A DNA stretch of 57,794 bases from Syntrophus sp. (in: bacteria). GTDB lineage: Bacteria > Desulfobacterota > Syntrophia > Syntrophales > UBA8958. Under the pieces are notes generated by a model that was given only the letters and a program-made list of their open reading frames with translations, ran no database searches and was not told where the DNA came from. Below, piece by piece: positions 1 through 57,399 of the stretch. How positions within the stretch are numbered: position 1 is the first letter of the stretch; each line of letters begins with the position of its first letter. The stretch lies in NCBI GenBank assembly GCA_025355725.1, contig JANXZC010000034.1, positions 1 to 57,794 of the forward strand, given 5' to 3'. A program made the translations under genes and the position numbers.

Positions 1-91
1 TTTGCACTTATTAGGCAAATTTTCAAACACAGCACCAGTGAACTCGCCCTACGTTCTCTGCACTGCTGCATGACTTTTTACGAGGGCATCA
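1..91. mobile_element. possible IS/MITE terminus at window edge
   Basis: GACTTTTTACGAGGGCATCA (72-91) resembles the terminal repeat of the element at 40644-40796. A + strand frame entering from the edge stops (TGA 71-73) right at it. Confidence 0.3.
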
Positions 92-139
92 TACTTGGTT
101 ATATCAAGGAAACTTGTCTTTTTTTTGTTACGGAGAGGG

Positions 140-285
140 AAAAAGGTCTTGCGATTAAAAAACATTAAGAGATACCCCCAGTTATTACAGCCACCATAGA
201 AATACCTGGCAAAATACCGATGTTGAAAACATATTGCCCAAAACAGGTCCTTACAGATAACCGCCCATAAGGCCTATTACCTCCC
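140..285 (-). pseudogene. decayed fragment of a TVP38/TMEM64 (VTT/DedA superfamily) gene
   Basis: Minus strand reads REVIGLMGGYL*GPVLGNMFST...FLIARPF, matching GEATGLIGGYLYGPILGTIYST...FIIARFF of the intact gene at 54563-55234. In-frame TAA at 251-253 plus frameshift(s). Confidence 0.75.
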
Positions 286-297
286 TATGTATTACAT

Positions 298-492
298 TCA
301 TTCTTTCTTATTCTCGTTCTTTTTGGCCTCCGTAAGCTCCCCCGGCTTCTCTTCCGGTTCAGCCATAGATCTTTTGAAATCCTTAATCGCTTTCCCCACG
401 GAGCTTCCCAGATCGGGAAGCTTGCCGGGACCGAAGACGATCAAGGCAATGACCAATACGATAACCAATTCCTGCATGCCTATTCCAAACAT
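298..492 (-). CDS. tatA: twin-arginine translocase TatA/TatE subunit (copy 1)
   Basis: MFGIGMQELVIVLVIALIVFGPGKLPDLGSSVGKAIKDFK: TM helix, FGP hinge, amphipathic helix. Start at ATG 492 with AAGGGGA RBS. Confidence 0.93.
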   Translation of the reverse strand: MFGIGMQELVIVLVIALIVFGPGKLPDLGSSVGKAIKDFKRSMAEPEEKPGELTEAKKNENKKE

Positions 493-514
493 ATATTCCC
501 CCTTGTTGTGACGA

Positions 515-880
515 TCAATGTTCCAGGGCTTCCACGATGGCCTTATCCAGCACATTCATATCAATAGGCTTCTTGATGTATTTTAAAACACCCTTCTTGA
601 TGGCTTCATCAATCGTATTTTCATCGTGAAAAGCCGTAATCATAATAACTTTCGCCTGATGATCCTGTTTCCTAAGTTCGTCGTAAACAAAAAACCCGCT
701 TACGTCGGGAAGGCGGATGTCAAGGATCACCAGTTCTGCTCGTGAGGCGGTATATTTGCTGATGCCCGCCCATCCATTGTCCGCGACTTCAACGTCATAA
801 CCTTCTTCAGTCAAATACATGTCAAGCGATTCACGGATGGAATCGTCATCGTCAATGATCAGAATCCTCGACATTGTCAC
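515..880 (-). CDS. single-domain response regulator (receiver only)
   Basis: ILIIDDD, LDIRLP (phospho-acceptor Asp), MITA, KP motifs; no output domain. Start may be ATG 874. Confidence 0.92.
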   Translation of the reverse strand: MTMSRILIIDDDDSIRESLDMYLTEEGYDVEVADNGWAGISKYTASRAELVILDIRLPDVSGFFVYDELRKQDHQAKVIMITAFHDENTIDEAIKKGVLKYIKKPIDMNVLDKAIVEALEH

Positions 881-894
881 CTCGTTTCATTTCT

Positions 895-937
895 TTAACA
901 GATAACCCTGGTATTACCAGGATCATGCAAAGGTTAA
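895..937 (-). promoter_or_regulatory. RNA hairpin between RAPP leader and response regulator
   Basis: mRNA AUGAUCCUGG-UAAUA-CCAGGGUUAU forms a 10-bp stem with two G-U pairs (only pairable on the minus strand), extended by UUAAC/GUUAA. Confidence 0.5.
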
Positions 938-971
938 TGGAGATAGACTATTTGGTTTTCCGCTAATTAAA

Positions 972-1298
972 CTAAAAAAAGGAGGGTGGAGCGCGAGTAT
1001 GAGACGGGCTTAGGTAAATGAGACTTACTTGCCACTTGATTTCTTCGAGGCAGGCTTGAGAGAAAGACAGTTGTTGTGAAAAATTATTTGCGTCTCTCCG
1101 GGCAGGATGAATAAACACCACCTTGACGCTGTGATCATCGGTATCAGCCTGACCGTTCCCACTTTGAATCATGGGAACACTGATATTTAAAGGCTGCCAG
1201 AATCCCGAAATGTCATCTATCCCCGTCAACAGGCATAAAATCATGATGCCAAGGCAGATTATCGGTTTTTGGGAAGAGATTTTTTTATGTATGGCCAT
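972..1298 (-). CDS. RAPP-motif leader protein, putative translation-arrest peptide (copy 1)
   Basis: 108 aa: basic N-terminus, hydrophobic segment, spacer, C-terminal HTRAPPSFF* (RAPP at 984-995). First ORF after a promoter. Confidence 0.7.
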   Translation of the reverse strand: MAIHKKISSQKPIICLGIMILCLLTGIDDISGFWQPLNISVPMIQSGNGQADTDDHSVKVVFIHPARRDANNFSQQLSFSQACLEEIKWQVSLIYLSPSHTRAPPSFF

Positions 1299-1341
1299 AA
1301 GGCGTCTTGCTCTCCGTCAAAGCCCTTAACTCTCAGGGCAG

Positions 1342-1370
1342 ACTATAAGGCGGACAACTTCCGAAGTCAA
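1342..1370 (-). promoter_or_regulatory. sigma70-type promoter for RAPP leader 1 unit
   Basis: TTGACT-N17-TATAGT on minus strand, ~45 nt upstream of ATG 1298. Confidence 0.7.
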
Positions 1371-1423
1371 TTAAAATGATGGGATACCTATCAATCAACT
1401 CGCGTGAATTGGTTGGACCAGAA

Positions 1424-3283
1424 TCACATCACCTGTTTTTCTCCAAATTCGCAGGACAGGACAAAAAAGTCCTCTTCCAGAGCAGTCTTGACGGCATAGG
1501 GAAGTTTCTTGAACAGGCGGATCATGGCGGCGTTACGGTGCGAGGTATAGGCCACCATGCCGGAATAACCATTCCCCATGGCCCCTTGGGCGAGTTTGGT
1601 CAAAATGACATGGGCAATCCCCTTGCCCTGCCAGTCTTTGGAGACGGAAAAAGCGACTTCCACCCGGTTCTGTGCCGGTTCGAGATTATATTCACCAACG
1701 GCGATCACCCTTTCCAGTCCCCCTTCCCCCGTGGCGGCAACAACAGTCATATTCTTGATGTAGTCCACCTGATACATGTCCGCCAGTTGTTCCTGATAGA
1801 AGGTCGAGCGCAACTGGAAGAATCTTGTTGCCACATCCTTGTCGTCCATGGTGTAGAAGTGTTCCTGGATGGGGCGGATATCGGTCGGTTTGACGGGACG
1901 GAAGGTAACCCGGACGCCGCCATATTCCCGGATTTCTTCCAGCCGGACGGGATAGACGCCGAAGAGGGATTCGTTCAGGGTGCGCTCCGGACTGATCAAA
2001 CCCAGTTCCCCGGCCTGCCGGAAAAGCTCTTCCCGAAAGGCGGGATGGGCGATGCTGATCAGGGCCATGGCCCGTTCTTGGAGACTTTTACCGAAGAGAT
2101 TGACCATGCCGTATTCCGTGATGACGTACTGAATATAGCTTTTCGATATGAACACCGCCCCGCAGTCCAGTTCGGGAACAATGTTGCTCTTCTTGCCGTC
2201 GGTTGTAGCGGCAGACAGGACGATTATTGATTTTCCCTCCGGGTTAGCCTGGGCGCCGATGACAAAATCGGCCATCCCGGTAACCCCGGAGAAATAATTC
2301 TCGGGCAGGGCATCAGCGGCAATCTGTCCGGTCAGATCTATGGCCGTGGCGGCATTTACAGAGGTCATCCGCTCCTGCCCAGCAATAATGATAGGGTTAT
2401 TTACATAGTCGGCAGGGTGAAATTCAATGGCGGGATGGTTATGGAGGAATCGGTACAATTCCTCCCCGCCGATGGCCGACTCCGCCACCAATTTTCCTTC
2501 GTGACTGCTCTTATAGCGATTCGTAACCACCCCTTCCTTCATGAGGTGCATGAATCCGTCCGTCATAAACTGGGTATGGACTCCCAGGTCACGCTTGTCC
2601 TTTAAGGCTCTGAGGATGGGGCCGTTATATTCACTCAGCCCCACATGAATCGTAGCGCCGTCCTCAATCAGGCAGGCCACCAGTTCGGCAATCTTCCGGG
2701 CCTCTTCCGTTTCCGGATGTTCCTGAACCGTCGGCAGCGGGGCGTCCCATTCCACAAACACATTTATGTCCCGGACATGGAGAAAGGTGTTCCCATTGAT
2801 GCGGGGCATCTGCGGGTTGACCTGGGCGATCACGAGATCCGCCGCCTGGGCTGCGGCTCTCGTGATATCGACGGATACCCCCAGGCTCATCCATCCGTAT
2901 TCATCGGGCGGGCTGACTTGAATTAGGGCGCAGTTGATCGGCAACTTCCGGGAACGAAAAAGTCGGGGGATGGAGGAAAAACCCATGGGGGTGAGAAAGC
3001 GGCGGATGCCTCTGAGCTGTTCCGTCCGTCCCGACCCCTGATAGATACTCCGGAAGGAAAAGATATGCTCCAGCTCCTGCCGATGCTTCGCCAAGTCGAT
3101 GGTTGCTTCCAATGCCAGGAGGCGGATAATCTCCAGATCGGAGAAGCGATCGCGGTTCTTAATGAGTGCTTCCACAAGATGGCGGGGCGAGCCGCAGGTG
3201 GAGCTAATGAAGACCCGCTGGCCGGAGTGGATCATGGCAATGGCTTCCTCTGCGGTCCTCAATTTTTGCCGGTATTCTTCCAT
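1424..3283 (-). CDS. acetyl-CoA hydrolase/transferase family protein with C-terminal GNAT domain
   Basis: QVSPPDEYGWMSLGVSVD, DLGVHT, IDLTGQ, YVITEYG, ALISIAHP (Cat2/ACH1-like). C-terminal EVAFSVSKDWQGKGIA acetyl-CoA-binding motif A. Confidence 0.9.
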   Translation of the reverse strand: MEEYRQKLRTAEEAIAMIHSGQRVFISSTCGSPRHLVEALIKNRDRFSDLEIIRLLALEATIDLAKHRQELEHIFSFRSIYQGSGRTEQLRGIRRFLTPMGFSSIPRLFRSRKLPINCALIQVSPPDEYGWMSLGVSVDITRAAAQAADLVIAQVNPQMPRINGNTFLHVRDINVFVEWDAPLPTVQEHPETEEARKIAELVACLIEDGATIHVGLSEYNGPILRALKDKRDLGVHTQFMTDGFMHLMKEGVVTNRYKSSHEGKLVAESAIGGEELYRFLHNHPAIEFHPADYVNNPIIIAGQERMTSVNAATAIDLTGQIAADALPENYFSGVTGMADFVIGAQANPEGKSIIVLSAATTDGKKSNIVPELDCGAVFISKSYIQYVITEYGMVNLFGKSLQERAMALISIAHPAFREELFRQAGELGLISPERTLNESLFGVYPVRLEEIREYGGVRVTFRPVKPTDIRPIQEHFYTMDDKDVATRFFQLRSTFYQEQLADMYQVDYIKNMTVVAATGEGGLERVIAVGEYNLEPAQNRVEVAFSVSKDWQGKGIAHVILTKLAQGAMGNGYSGMVAYTSHRNAAMIRLFKKLPYAVKTALEEDFFVLSCEFGEKQVM

Positions 3284-53567: not shown

Positions 53568-54437
53568 TTAAATAACTTTTTCCATAGCAGCAATCGCCAC
53601 TTCGATTTGATCATCGGTCGGTTGTCGAGTTGTGATCTTCTGTAACATCAATCCCGGCCAGCTTAAAAATTGCACCCATGTCCATTCTTGGTGTTTTCCT
53701 GTGTAGCGTATCACCTCGTATGAAATACCGGCAACCACAGGAAGAAGGAGAAGTTTGTATAAAACGCGGTGGGCAAAATCAGGGCGGCCAAGTAGCGAGA
53801 ATACGAGAATAGAGACAATCATGACCACCAAAATAAAACTCGTTCCGCAACGCGGATGACGTGTCGAATATTTTCGAACGTTTGCAACCGTCAATTCCTG
53901 TCCGTTTTCCCACGCGAATACTGTCTTATGTTCAGCGCCATGATACATGAACACCCGCCGCATGTCTTCCATGAGCAGAGTGGAACCCAAGAAGCAAAGA
54001 AATAGACCGAGACGTATGCAACCTTCAATGATATTCAAGAGAAAAGTACTGGCGATAACGCTTCTTAGTAGAGAAAAGATGTAGGCGGGAATAACAATAA
54101 AAAAGCAAATCGATACGGTAAGACTGATCAACATGGATAGGGGCATTTCCCACCGCCCCGGTTTTTTATCGTTCTCAGTCAGAGCCATCTCAGCAGAAAA
54201 CATAAGGCTTTTCATTCCGATGACCATCATTTCGATAAGCGAAACCGAGCCGCGAATAAACTTGAATCCCAGTAATTTGTAACGTTTGGCAAGAGGAACA
54301 TGATACTTTTCCTGGATGATGATTTCATTATCGGGTCTTCTCACAGCTGAGGCAATTTTGTTTTCGTGGCGCATCATGACGCCTTCAATGAGTGCCTGCC
54401 CACCAGCAATATCATTGGTCCGCTTTTCGTTATTCAT
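53568..54437 (-). CDS. DUF1385 membrane protein
   Basis: GGQALIEGVMMR, VFMYHGAEHK, HPRCGTSF, GLMLQKITT. Confidence 0.9.
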   Translation of the reverse strand: MNNEKRTNDIAGGQALIEGVMMRHENKIASAVRRPDNEIIIQEKYHVPLAKRYKLLGFKFIRGSVSLIEMMVIGMKSLMFSAEMALTENDKKPGRWEMPLSMLISLTVSICFFIVIPAYIFSLLRSVIASTFLLNIIEGCIRLGLFLCFLGSTLLMEDMRRVFMYHGAEHKTVFAWENGQELTVANVRKYSTRHPRCGTSFILVVMIVSILVFSLLGRPDFAHRVLYKLLLLPVVAGISYEVIRYTGKHQEWTWVQFLSWPGLMLQKITTRQPTDDQIEVAIAAMEKVI

Positions 54438-54562: not shown

Positions 54563-55234
54563 TTATGCAGCTTTTTTCTTTAGTTTTTCAAGCAATTTAT
54601 CTCGATAAAAATAAGCAGCTACGAAAACGATCGAGCTTACTCCGACGAGAATGAATAAAGCGCGATACTGCCCATTGCGGACACAGCTTCCGGTTATAGT
54701 TAGCATCAGTGTTCCGAGTAAACGTCCAACTGTCGAAATGGTCAAGAAATGCCACGTCTTCATATGACTTAAACCCATGATGTAGCAGAGGTAATCTTTT
54801 GGTAAACCAGGGATAAGAAAGAGGAGAAATGAAACGAGAATTCCTCTATGTTCCATAAAATGATCAAATTTTTTTAAGACATCTGACGAAACAACTTTTT
54901 CCACCAAAGGCATGCCGAAGAACCTTGCTATTATAAATGCCAGCCAGGAACCAATTGTAAGACCAATTGTTGAATAAATTGTCCCCAGGATTGGACCATA
55001 AAGATAACCGCCAATGAGGCCCGTCGCTTCCCCAGGTATTGGCGCTGCCACCACCTGCATGATCTGAAGCAAAATGAAGACGATTTCATCATAGGGATGA
55101 AATGAATTAATGAATCCTATGCCTTTTTCTTTATTGACAAAGAATTCATACAAATCATGATGGATGAAAACATAAGTCAACAGAAAGACAATCAGAAATA
55201 AGAAAATGATCCTGAAGGCAAGACGTCTATTCAT
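54563..55234 (-). CDS. TVP38/TMEM64 family (VTT domain, DedA superfamily) membrane protein
   Basis: LQIMQVVAAPIPGE, GGYLYG, FLIPGLPKDYLCY, GRLLG. Confidence 0.88.
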   Translation of the reverse strand: MNRRLAFRIIFLFLIVFLLTYVFIHHDLYEFFVNKEKGIGFINSFHPYDEIVFILLQIMQVVAAPIPGEATGLIGGYLYGPILGTIYSTIGLTIGSWLAFIIARFFGMPLVEKVVSSDVLKKFDHFMEHRGILVSFLLFLIPGLPKDYLCYIMGLSHMKTWHFLTISTVGRLLGTLMLTITGSCVRNGQYRALFILVGVSSIVFVAAYFYRDKLLEKLKKKAA

Positions 55235-55252: not shown

Positions 55253-55453
55253 CTATTCTTTTTTATCATTAATTTTCTTCGCTTCTGAAGTATCTTCCTT
55301 CTTATTCTCAGGTTCTTGCATAGCCTTCTGGAATCCTTTGATTGATTTGCCGAGAGTGCTCCCTAAATCTCCAAGCTTCCCCGGTCCGAAAATGACGAGG
55401 ACAATAATCAAAATTACCAGCAAATGCATCGGTTGAAAAAGACCTTGAAACAT
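55253..55453 (-). CDS. tatA: twin-arginine translocase TatA/TatE subunit (copy 2)
   Basis: HLLVILIIVLVIFGPGKLGDLGSTLGKSIKGFQKAM; AGGAGG RBS. Confidence 0.92.
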   Translation of the reverse strand: MFQGLFQPMHLLVILIIVLVIFGPGKLGDLGSTLGKSIKGFQKAMQEPENKKEDTSEAKKINDKKE

Positions 55454-55728: not shown

Positions 55729-56229
55729 CTACTTGGAAGAACGCACCGGCAGTGCACGGCCGTTGATGCTGTTCGACTTGGGACTCAAGGCCTGTTCGCC
55801 ATCGAGGAATCGGAGGTAGGCAGCATAGGAGTCGTTAGTTTCAGATGCCCATGGTGCGAAACAGGTAATGTCTATCAACTCCGTTGCTACATGAATGTTA
55901 TTGATAGGATCGCATGCTCCCTGACGGGATTTATTCGCATCATACAGCCCCGCCAGCTCACTCTGTGTCGGCATCCGCCAGTCGGTATAGCCACCCTCAC
56001 GATAATTCTCGCAATAGGACTTAGCGTTCTGCCAGTTAATATCCGAACCGTTGTCCTTTGCCGCCCACATCAGGTTCGTCCGTGTGTCCAGTACTGTCCT
56101 ATTGTCATAGGTGATAAAGCGACCATCCTTGCCAATTTCTCCTGCTGTTGCATACTTCGTTGTAATAAAAGTTCCTGCTAAAATAGCCACCACCATTAAC
56201 ACTACTATCGTTCCTAATGCCCTTTTCAT
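55729..56229 (-). CDS. exported DUF1566 (Lcl-like) domain protein
   Basis: Signal/TM segment; TVLDTRTNLMW, NWQNAKSYC, GYTDWRMPT..EL, ALPVR. Confidence 0.82.
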   Translation of the reverse strand: MKRALGTIVVLMVVAILAGTFITTKYATAGEIGKDGRFITYDNRTVLDTRTNLMWAAKDNGSDINWQNAKSYCENYREGGYTDWRMPTQSELAGLYDANKSRQGACDPINNIHVATELIDITCFAPWASETNDSYAAYLRFLDGEQALSPKSNSINGRALPVRSSK

Positions 56230-56288: not shown

Positions 56289-56462
56289 TTATGTTCTTGA
56301 GTCTAGGTTCGGGTAGATTAGCCCTGCTTGCAAGGCGATAAATTTGCTAATCTCCGCCAATCCCTTGTACGCGACTTCAACGTCACAATTTTCTTCTGTC
56401 AAGCACATGTCCAGTGATTCCCGGATGGAATCGTCATCTCCAATAATCAGGATATTCGCCAC
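56289..56462 (-). pseudogene. truncated paralog of the receiver-only response regulator at 515-880
   Basis: GTG start with AGGAGA RBS; ANILIIGDDDSIRESLDMCLTEENCDVEVAYKGLAEISKF matches SRILIIDDDDSIRESLDMYLTEEGYDVEVADNGWAGISKY. It diverges before the phospho-acceptor Asp and stops after 57 aa. Confidence 0.85.
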
Positions 56463-56586: not shown

Positions 56587-56796
56587 CTATTTGTTAATTT
56601 CCGTGTTTTTCACTTCCTCCTGAGGAGCTGGGGCCGATGGAGGTGCTTGCTGATCGGTACTCTGATCGGTGGGTGCGACTATCTTCTGCTGCTCCGGAGG
56701 TGATGTCTGAGGTTCATCGGCATAGGACAGCAAGGGGGCGGCACCAAAGAGGGCCGCCATAAAAGCGGCAAACACTATTTTCTTCATTTTTTTCAT
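56587..56796 (-). CDS. small exported Pro/Gln-rich protein
   Basis: Sec signal peptide MKKMKKIVFAAFMAALFGAAPLLSYA; AAGGAG RBS; low-complexity mature part. Confidence 0.75.
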   Translation of the reverse strand: MKKMKKIVFAAFMAALFGAAPLLSYADEPQTSPPEQQKIVAPTDQSTDQQAPPSAPAPQEEVKNTEINK

Positions 56797-56810: not shown

Positions 56811-56924
56811 TTAAGAAAGTTTCATTTTTTTAATTGAGCAATCTGGCCTTTTGTTCGTTAATTTCGTCACGAAGACCAAAAGGGCATAAGATACAAACAG
56901 AATCATCATCGCGGATTCATCCAT
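56811..56924 (-). CDS. 37-aa single-TM small protein (absent from ORF track)
   Basis: GAGGT RBS; MDESAMMILFVSYALLVFVTKLTNKRPDCSIKKMKLS*; the stop overlaps the RBS of the next gene. Confidence 0.5.
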   Translation of the reverse strand: MDESAMMILFVSYALLVFVTKLTNKRPDCSIKKMKLS

Positions 56925-57063: not shown

Positions 57064-57399
57064 CTATAGAGATGAAACTGGGGGTGCCCGGTCTGGTTGG
57101 AAAAAAATTGCAGGTGTGTCAGGAATCAAAAGCCCCATCTCCTGATCAAGATAGGTCTTGATAACGAGATGGGGCAGATAATATTTATTACCATTTTTCG
57201 GGACAAGGTTAGGTGCCTTCCAGGTATGATGTTTGGAATCTCCCGAATCATCATTGTTCAATGATTGGATAAGGGTGGGGTTTGTTTTATAGAATATATT
57301 CTGCGCCACGAGGTCGTCCACCGTTACCGCTGCCACGATAAAGAACAACAGCAATATCTTCAAAACATGGGGTACGACCTGCTTACGCAGCCAAAACAT
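57064..57399 (-). CDS. RAPP-motif leader protein, putative translation-arrest peptide (copy 2)
   Basis: 111 aa from ATG 57399 (GAGGT RBS): basic N-terminus, TM segment, spacer, C-terminal QPDRAPPVSSL* (RAPP at 57079-57090). Confidence 0.7.
   Translation of the reverse strand: MFWLRKQVVPHVLKILLLFFIVAAVTVDDLVAQNIFYKTNPTLIQSLNNDDSGDSKHHTWKAPNLVPKNGNKYYLPHLVIKTYLDQEMGLLIPDTPAIFFQPDRAPPVSSL

Follow-up and report, generated by a model that had tools for sequence, protein, structure and literature searches.

A putative RAPP-type arrest leader ahead of receiver-only response regulator and accessory TatA/E genes in Syntrophus sp.

Introduction

Among the described systems closest to the locus studied here are the arrest peptides ApdA/ApdP and the leader CruR of Bordetella pertussis, which share the motif RAPP. 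The Rho-utilisation site of CruR has been mapped to where the leader has more C than G (C>G), and Rho is kept away by a ribosome that has stalled at RAPP (PMC9426467). RxPP has been selected as a strong stalling motif (PMC10951233), and RAPP and RGPP are described as under-represented in proteomes but over-represented where small secreted proteins end, with small secreted or membrane proteins that carry either motif at the C-terminus sitting upstream of diverse genes (PMC12992588). Arrest-peptide control of export machinery has so far concerned components of Sec and YidC, and RAPP leaders have so far concerned copper and other genes. Our study deals with a stretch of 57,794 nt from Syntrophus sp. 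(GenBank assembly GCA_025355725.1, contig JANXZC010000034.1, positions 1 to 57,794), the whole of which is referred to as the window. On its minus strand, an open reading frame (ORF) of 108 aa (1298..972) ends in RAPP and three further residues. From sequence comparison, we read this ORF, with a probability of roughly 0.62, as an exported RAPP-type arrest leader that controls a receiver-only regulator and an accessory TatA/E protein of the pathway for twin-arginine translocation (Tat). A second leader, of another family, lies towards the other end of the window, and the new point of this study is that accessory TatA genes and a gene for a receiver-only regulator are found, time and again, with RAPP leaders of two families.

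Results

The copy-1 leader and its promoter

The first of the two leaders (copy 1, family 1; Table 1) opens with MAIHKKISSQK, in which K5, K6 and K11 precede the hydrophobic segment IICLGIMILCLLTGI, with a mean Kyte–Doolittle hydropathy of 2.87 over 15 residues, and 74 residues separate this segment from R102 of the motif. An earlier note on this DNA, which gave no strand, had described a first ORF behind a TTGACT-N17-TATAGT promoter, with a lysine-rich N-terminus, a hydrophobic segment, a spacer of ~70 aa and RAPP three codons ahead of the stop (codons 995..984), and every one of these elements is present, on the minus strand. Its description of a protein lacking an N-terminal twin-arginine pair and the CxxC of the CruR/DUF2946 type was borne out as well, as the window protein has KK in its N-region, contains no CxxC and gave no match in a profile check against DUF2946. 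The same properties were counted across 29 family-1 members, one of them N-truncated, three other N-truncated sequences having been skipped. An RR pair was found in the N-region of 0/29, the net charge of the N-region was +2 to +5 in 28/29 (the exception being the N-truncated sequence), and CxxC occurred in two of the 29, where it is not conserved, and in 0/14 members of family 2. The hydrophobic segments of the family have Kyte–Doolittle values of about 2.5–3.6 over 12 residues.

The promoter was the best of three promoter-like sites in positions 1..1500, a number that is by itself within chance, as shuffled sequences gave a mean of 3.2. Both of its hexamers and their 17 nt spacing recur in 9/10 aligned upstream regions of homologs, including that of a relative with only 36 % identity, and a GGAG (1315..1312), 13 nt 5' of the leader ATG, is also conserved among homologs. 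Directly 5' of the −35 hexamer lies a near-palindrome, GATAGGTATCCCATC (1378–1392, minus strand), which is largely kept in close homologs and is a possible operator at which a dimeric regulator would bind.

A six-frame scan of the genome returned 11,817 ORFs of 60–300 aa. RAPP or RGPP stood no more than 12 residues from the stop in nine of these and an N-terminal hydrophobic 15-mer was present in 502; the two properties coincided in two ORFs, against ~0.4 expected, and both of these lie inside the window, the scan finding no RAPP-ended ORF with a signal elsewhere in the genome. AlphaFold2 modelled the copy-1 leader with a pLDDT of 57.9 (helix 10–29, disorder 30–63, helix 64–96), which is too low for fold searches.

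Conservation of the motif

A search of 5.8 billion clustered proteins identified 21 family-1 homologs of 90–120 aa. With the window protein counted in, RAPP was found to be invariant in 22/22 sequences and to stand three residues from the stop in 21/22. A profile search of 1.84 billion representatives added more distant matches, namely 11 small proteins and one of 2440 aa, and across the window protein and the 11 small relatives (28–58 % identity) the sole invariant columns were R102, P104 and P105. Nine of these 12 distant sequences carry RAPP, and RGPP, RSPP and RPPP are each found once. The proline codons of the motif vary synonymously among loci (CCA/CCG/CCC at the first, then CCC/CCT) and pairwise dN/dS values among family-1 leaders are 0.26–0.65 (21 pairs), which together indicate that constraint acts on the leader peptide. 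Conservation of both the ORF and the motif among homologs further identifies the copy-1 leader as a real gene beyond chance.

An alternative is that the ORF encodes an ordinary small protein, exported or in the membrane, which has its own function, such as partnering the regulator or TatA; RAPP would then serve structure or recognition, and a pause at it would have no part in regulation. Purifying selection across the entire ORF fits such a protein, as do the spacer residues conserved in close relatives (W34, P36, N38, I44-Q45-S46, W67 and EEIKWQ). We nevertheless regard this explanation as quite improbable: only R-x-P-P is invariant in distant relatives, the distance between motif and stop is fixed at 3–4 residues (25/32 in family 1, 13/14 in family 2), the leader is always first past the promoter while the genes behind it vary, AlphaFold2 predicted no globular fold, and RAPP and RGPP are under-represented in proteomes yet favoured as C-terminal motifs of small secreted proteins (PMC12992588).

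No Pfam family matched the window leader, and no NCBIfam family matched the leaders. When 12 members were compared with Pfam at E values up to 10, the only match was that of one member to DUF2946 (PF11162), with an E value of 0.035 that falls below any threshold of acceptance. Fused or longer forms of the leader were found in 0/28 candidates of 190–2000 aa, which is weak evidence. The 2440 aa protein from the profile search (P0046) matches residues 35–81 of the leader profile in seven separate stretches (E 1.9e-8), and may represent a repeat protein with the same acidic motif as the spacer, or else a match by composition. At one locus (L004/L009, G010), the C-run of the proline codons is one base shorter, RAPP is kept and the frame then shifts (RAPPPFHSS...). 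The regulator at this locus is truncated, DUF2147 is present as a remnant and TatA is not downstream; the locus is either decaying or affected by a homopolymer assembly error.

A layout shared by two families

Family 2 consists of the second leader in the window (copy 2, MFWLRK...FFQPDRAPPVSSL) and 13 homologs, with RAPP in 13/14 aligned sequences and RASP in the remaining one. It is barely alignable with family 1, as a comparison by BLASTP gave an E value of 0.99 and hhalign a probability of 34 % (E 4e-4), confined to the N-terminal 61 columns. For both families, the layout was counted back from the proline expected in the P site, using 32 unique sequences of family 1 and 14 of family 2. At copy 1, the stalled ribosome is predicted to hold P104 in its P site with P105 at the A site, a position taken from ApdA/ApdP (PMC10951233). 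Counted in this way, the hydrophobic segment occupies positions 91–80 in family 1 and 93–79 in family 2, and is followed by DD at positions 76–75 and 78–77, respectively. An acidic cluster follows at positions 53–49 in family 1, each of which is acidic in 62–72 % of sequences except for position 51, and at positions 56–50 in family 2. A lysine stands at position 45 in 72 % of family-1 and 100 % of family-2 sequences, and the tail after the motif is three residues long in 25/32 and four residues long in 13/14. The two families therefore share one layout relative to the stall site. The positive N-region, together with DD after the hydrophobic segment, implies an N-in/C-out orientation, and a signal placed 77–91 residues from the predicted stall is compatible with release by export. 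The earlier note had inferred a Sec/SRP-targeted signal anchor whose pulling force would release the stall; this reading is partly supported, in that the build is that of an arrest leader, while the segment may equally be a cleaved signal peptide or a signal anchor. The shared spacing offers a defined layout, open to mutation, with which to ask what force frees a natural RAPP stall.

The placement of the acidic cluster also bears on what such a stall might report. It is conceivable, though unlikely, that the leader is an arrest leader that responds to a specific condition, with membrane potential as the candidate, and not to general Sec capacity. In the explicit form of this proposal, which we consider more doubtful again, an energised membrane would drive the acidic cluster outward through SecY and free the ribosome, and low potential would leave the ribosome stalled, with the regulator and the extra TatA switched on. 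The position of the cluster is kept in both families (53–49, n=32; 56–50, n=14), with lysine at position 45 after it, and Ismail et al. in 2015 reportedly placed the electric force at '47–49 residues'. A segment is described as reaching the vicinity of SecYEG when 40–50 residues from the peptidyl-transferase centre, the movement of charges against the potential as costly (PMC7886326), and the transmembrane potential as exerting a pulling force on charged residues (PMC13307174). The Tat pathway itself runs on proton-motive force, and one family-2 leader precedes the gene for a twin-arginine [NiFe] hydrogenase small subunit. Set against this, the argument is purely positional, acidic residues are common in periplasmic loops and none of those in the leader is invariant once the distant relatives are aligned. 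Were it true, such a potential gauge would be the first arrest-peptide control of Tat and a natural version of laboratory force-sensor constructs.

Genes paired with the leaders

Copy 1 heads genes for a receiver-only (CheY-like) response regulator and an accessory TatA/E paralog (Table 1); the earlier note was silent on these genes, and no other part of the locus is more informative. A protein search of 21 genomes found six orthologs of the regulator at an identity of at least 87 %, all of them no more than 1.1 kb downstream of a RAPP leader, and a seventh match, at 53 % identity, inside a protein of 461 aa. That 6/6 orthologs are paired with a leader hints at a connection, so far unexplored, between the sensing of nascent chains and phosphorelay signalling. 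Regulators are conserved at 84–97 % identity compared to 62–84 % for the leaders. Decayed copies of the regulator persist behind intact leaders, in the window (56462..56289) and at two further loci (L018 and L019).

After merging of duplicates, 15 distinct family-1 loci were available, one of which ends within the regulator gene and four of which were covered to ~1.5 kb downstream. Eight of the 15 have TatA downstream, encoded on the strand of the leader, and one of these eight, from another family of the order (G069), has TatA directly behind the leader. A receiver gene, intact or as a remnant, lies behind the leader in 9/15. Among the eight distinct family-2 loci, two of which are cut by contig ends, TatA is downstream in three and a receiver gene or remnant in three. 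One family-2 leader directly precedes the gene for a [NiFe] hydrogenase small subunit with the twin-arginine signal SRRAFIK, a protein that is therefore a Tat substrate and not a Tat component. This is one of five family-2 leaders in a single genome, G004 (L022, which is G004:C44, and L025–L028). Within the order, the distribution is patchy, with family 1 found in 9/301 genomes (one match is without RAPP and probably false) and family 2 in 4/301. None of the loci examined has copper-homeostasis genes downstream.

The Syntrophus sp. genome (3.15 Mb) encodes four TatA/B/E proteins and one TatC, and two of the TatA genes are those in the window. The others are a TatA on contig C102, behind a RodZ-like gene, and a TatB–TatC pair on contig C117; neither of these loci has a RAPP leader, whereas both TatA paralogs in the window are headed by one.

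With TatA as the most frequent downstream gene, the leader might be taken for a true Tat monitoring substrate, recognised by TatBC and subject to TatA-dependent pulling, with direct feedback on Tat capacity. RR is found in a WLRRRVV context in 4/14 family-2 N-regions, which would suit this idea, and in 0/29 family-1 N-regions, which would not. The hydrophobic segments of the leaders are strong and are followed by DD instead of a basic residue, which by general knowledge is more like substrates of Sec and the signal recognition particle, and Tat transports folded proteins after their translation. Of the explanations weighed here, we consider this the least probable, and very unlikely. By definition, a monitoring substrate uses the very pathway to which the component under its control belongs (PMC10987492), and since the copy-1 leader would control TatA/E yet has no twin-arginine motif, it is not a strict Tat monitoring substrate. 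The term used in the earlier note thus stands as far as the build is concerned, which does resemble that of a monitoring substrate; the strict definition fails for Tat for want of a twin-arginine motif, and the genes that would be controlled are not those of Sec or YidC.

A further possibility is that the stall tethers the polycistronic mRNA to the membrane, comparable to XBP1u in eukaryotes, so that envelope proteins are made there, with no on/off switch involved. Most of the downstream genes do encode envelope proteins (TatA, DUF2147, Lcl_C, DedA/VTT, DUF1385 and the hydrogenase small subunit). The gene immediately downstream, however, usually encodes a cytoplasmic receiver domain and other loci have genes for cytoplasmic enzymes, and we judge tethering to be very unlikely. 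To our knowledge, there is no bacterial precedent for stall-based tethering of mRNA.

At the copy-2 locus, a longer series of genes follows the leader (Table 1). A metagenome contig (L019) has a family-1 leader ahead of nearly the same gene set, and the two types of leader therefore hold equivalent positions. Four of the 14 family-2 leaders have RR in a WLRRRVVPQ context that resembles a twin-arginine motif, the copy in the window having RK at this place (WLRKQVV), and the core that follows is strongly hydrophobic. A search of viral contigs, made with a phage or viral origin of family 2 in mind, found no relative. Upstream of the copy-1 leader, a gene at 1424–3283 (minus strand, 619 aa) combines acetyl-CoA hydrolase/transferase domains with a C-terminal GNAT acetyltransferase, and this fusion gene also neighbours the leader upstream in the G011 and G010 loci (L007 and L009).

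Coupling of the predicted stall to the downstream genes

The 3' end of the copy-1 leader and the start of the spacer behind it form a C-rich, G-poor tract that is a candidate Rho-utilisation site (Table 1). Across the 150 nt around the predicted stall, the C/G ratio is 1.91, which places it among the highest 1.1 % of 83,522 windows of the genome. A C>G skew at the stall site was seen in 19/19 leader loci, with ratios of 1.27–2.42 compared to 0.76–1.34 in the remainder of each ORF, and Rho is encoded in the genome. On account of the tract at the stall in all 19 loci, the presence of Rho and the precedent of CruR, we favour, with low confidence, a CruR-type coupling in which the stalled ribosome would shield the C-rich tract from Rho, over a SecM-type opening of RNA structure.

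The spacer between leader and regulator contains a conserved element, AACCTTTGCATGAT, and the core of a hairpin (Table 1). The stem of this hairpin changes on both sides in some homologs, and no T-run follows it (890–935). The RNAalifold consensus for the spacer is weak (−5.3 kcal/mol, with one compensatory pair), and the fold of the single sequence has a z of −0.54 against shuffles. The ribosome-binding site of the regulator is predicted to be paired in seven homologs, with a P(unpaired) of 0.01–0.21 with or without the ribosome footprint, and a clear rise was seen only in L011. Unmasking of the ribosome-binding site in the manner of SecM was dropped as the favoured mechanism in view of the inconsistent gain in accessibility, the z of −0.54 and the weak consensus. 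Rfam gave no matches in 200..1450 at E values up to 1, and inspection of the spacer by eye gave no convincing match to a sigma-54 or internal promoter.

Table 1. Features of the two leader loci in the window, with their positions, strand and supporting detail
Feature	Position	Strand	Detail
Leader ORF copy 1 (family 1)	972..1298	minus	108 aa; ATG 1298, TAG 974..972; MAIHKK...HTRAPPSFF
Sigma-70-type promoter	1342..1370	minus	TTGACT 1370..1365, 17 nt, TATAGT 1347..1342; 10/12 consensus positions
Hydrophobic segment, predicted signal or anchor	1218..1262	minus	IICLGIMILCLLTGI, residues 13–27; K5/K6/K11 before, D28 D29 after
Acidic cluster D52-T-D54-D55	1134..1145	minus	49–52 residues ahead of the P-site Pro
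RAPP codons	984..995	minus	CGC GCT CCA CCC (R102 A103 P104 P105), then S-F-F and stop
C-rich, G-poor tract, candidate Rho-utilisation site	920..1049	minus	C/G 2.0–2.7 in 78 nt windows; leader 3' end and spacer start
Intergenic spacer	875..971	minus	97 nt; conserved element AACCTTTGCATGAT 935..922; hairpin core CCTGG-TAATA-CCAGG 921..907
Receiver-only (CheY-like) response regulator	515..874	minus	119 aa; PF00072 E 3.9e-28; ribosome-binding site GAGGTG 883..878
Accessory TatA/E paralog	298..492	minus	64 aa; PF02416 E 3.2e-17, 61.9 bits vs 21; TIGR01411 tatAE 68.8 vs 53.9
Terminator-like hairpin	249..272	minus	26 nt past the TatA stop; 9 bp, T-rich tail; consensus match only
Leader copy 2 (family 2)	57064..57399	minus	111 aa; MFWLRK...FFQPDRAPPVSSL, stop; RAPP codons 57090..57079
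Hydrophobic 37 aa ORF	56924..56811	minus	Behind copy 2
Pro/Gln-rich secreted 69 aa ORF	56796..56587	minus	Behind copy 2
Truncated receiver gene	56462..56289	minus	Remnant of the copy-1 regulator type; behind copy 2
Lcl_C gene	56229..55729	minus	Between receiver remnant and second TatA
Second accessory TatA/E paralog	55253..55453	minus	66 aa; PF02416 E 2e-16; TIGR01411 65.5 bits
DedA/VTT gene	55234..54563	minus	After second TatA
DUF1385 gene	54437..53568	minus	After DedA/VTT

Discussion

Our study suggests that the copy-1 ORF acts as an exported arrest leader for the regulator and TatA genes behind it. Under this proposal, transcription would start at the TTGACT-N17-TATAGT promoter and a ribosome translating the leader would stall at RAPP. 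By that point the N-terminal signal or anchor, 77–91 residues from the peptidyl-transferase centre, would already have long been engaged with SecYEG, and the acidic cluster, ~50 residues from the centre, would lie in or at the channel. The force of translocation would then pull on the nascent chain and release the stall. The dwell time of the stalled ribosome would in this way set the output of the regulator and TatA, through whichever coupling step operates and with whichever sign the regulation may have.

Several points weigh against this proposal. A RAPP motif is by itself no proof of stalling and, as the leader is without a twin-arginine motif, it is not obvious that a Sec-dependent release should govern the dosage of TatA. 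Other partners of family-1 leaders are not related to Tat, and include a B12/radical SAM enzyme, an epimerase (at two loci), an IHF/HU-like protein and a sensor. Some of the C>G skew at the stall site is a necessary result of the motif's Pro, Ala and Ser codons, and the skew is weaker in family 2 (1.27–1.61). Partition-function folding of seven homologs, with and without a 31 nt footprint, found no structure that would be opened by the stalled ribosome, and the AlphaFold2 model, of low confidence (pLDDT 57.9), is uninformative on the spacer of the leader.

If the leaders do stall, the Tat pathway would be under the same kind of control as Sec and YidC. The energy metabolism of Syntrophales relies on hydrogenases and formate dehydrogenases that are exported by Tat.

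Comparison with known systems

The combination of an arrest peptide with Tat was sought in the literature. A full-text search found no title or abstract linking arrest peptides to tatA, and a few reviews contain both terms. 'Tat' and 'twin-arginine' are absent from the main text of PMC7897499, PMC10987492 and PMC12992588. The source table for Fig. 4B of PMC12992588 has 30 groups of downstream products, which include no TatA and no response regulator, and 'twin' and 'TatA' are absent from those parts of its supplements that were examined, a Tat entry in the remaining parts being possible.

ApdA/ApdP and the 'RQH' class, which are found upstream of secA/secDF (PMC7897499, PMC10987492, PMC10951233), share with the leader described here a small ORF that opens the operon, an N-terminal signal, a long spacer and a C-terminal R-A-P-P, and in all of them the motif is kept while the remainder of the peptide diverges. 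There is, however, no sequence homology between them, the present leader heads genes for a receiver-only regulator and TatA/E instead of secA/secDF/yidC, and its stall is a prediction. CruR (DUF2946; PMC9426467) resembles the leader in its RAPP, its position at the head of an operon and the C>G region near the stall, and in both cases a long intergenic spacer rules out translational coupling. The leader differs from CruR in lacking a CxxC, in matching DUF2946 at no accepted threshold and in having no genes related to copper behind it, and the release of CruR is described as independent of its signal peptide (PMC9426467).

The short form of SecM from Pasteurellaceae (SecM_small) is likewise a secreted protein of ~105–110 aa with its stall near the C-terminus, and the leader spacer of ~75 residues compares with a median of 71 for short SecM (PMC10987492). 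Features from a protein language model place the leader near the SecM_small cluster (score 0.94, 173 shared features, rank 6), which serves as a lead only. The leader differs from SecM and SecM_small in having RAPP and not ...GIRAGP, in matching no Pfam family, in the absence of a predicted stem that occludes the Shine–Dalgarno (SD) element and is opened by the stall, and in a target that is not secA. VemP of Vibrio alginolyticus is released through SecDF, which is driven by ion-motive force, and controls a paralog of an export component (PMC10987492); its arrest sequence is another one and its target is secDF2, whereas a link of the present leader to motive force is hypothetical. The small secreted RAPP/RGPP proteins, which include seven arrest peptides of Streptomyces lividans (PMC12992588), belong to the same general class as the leader and, like it, are associated with genes outside Sec and YidC.

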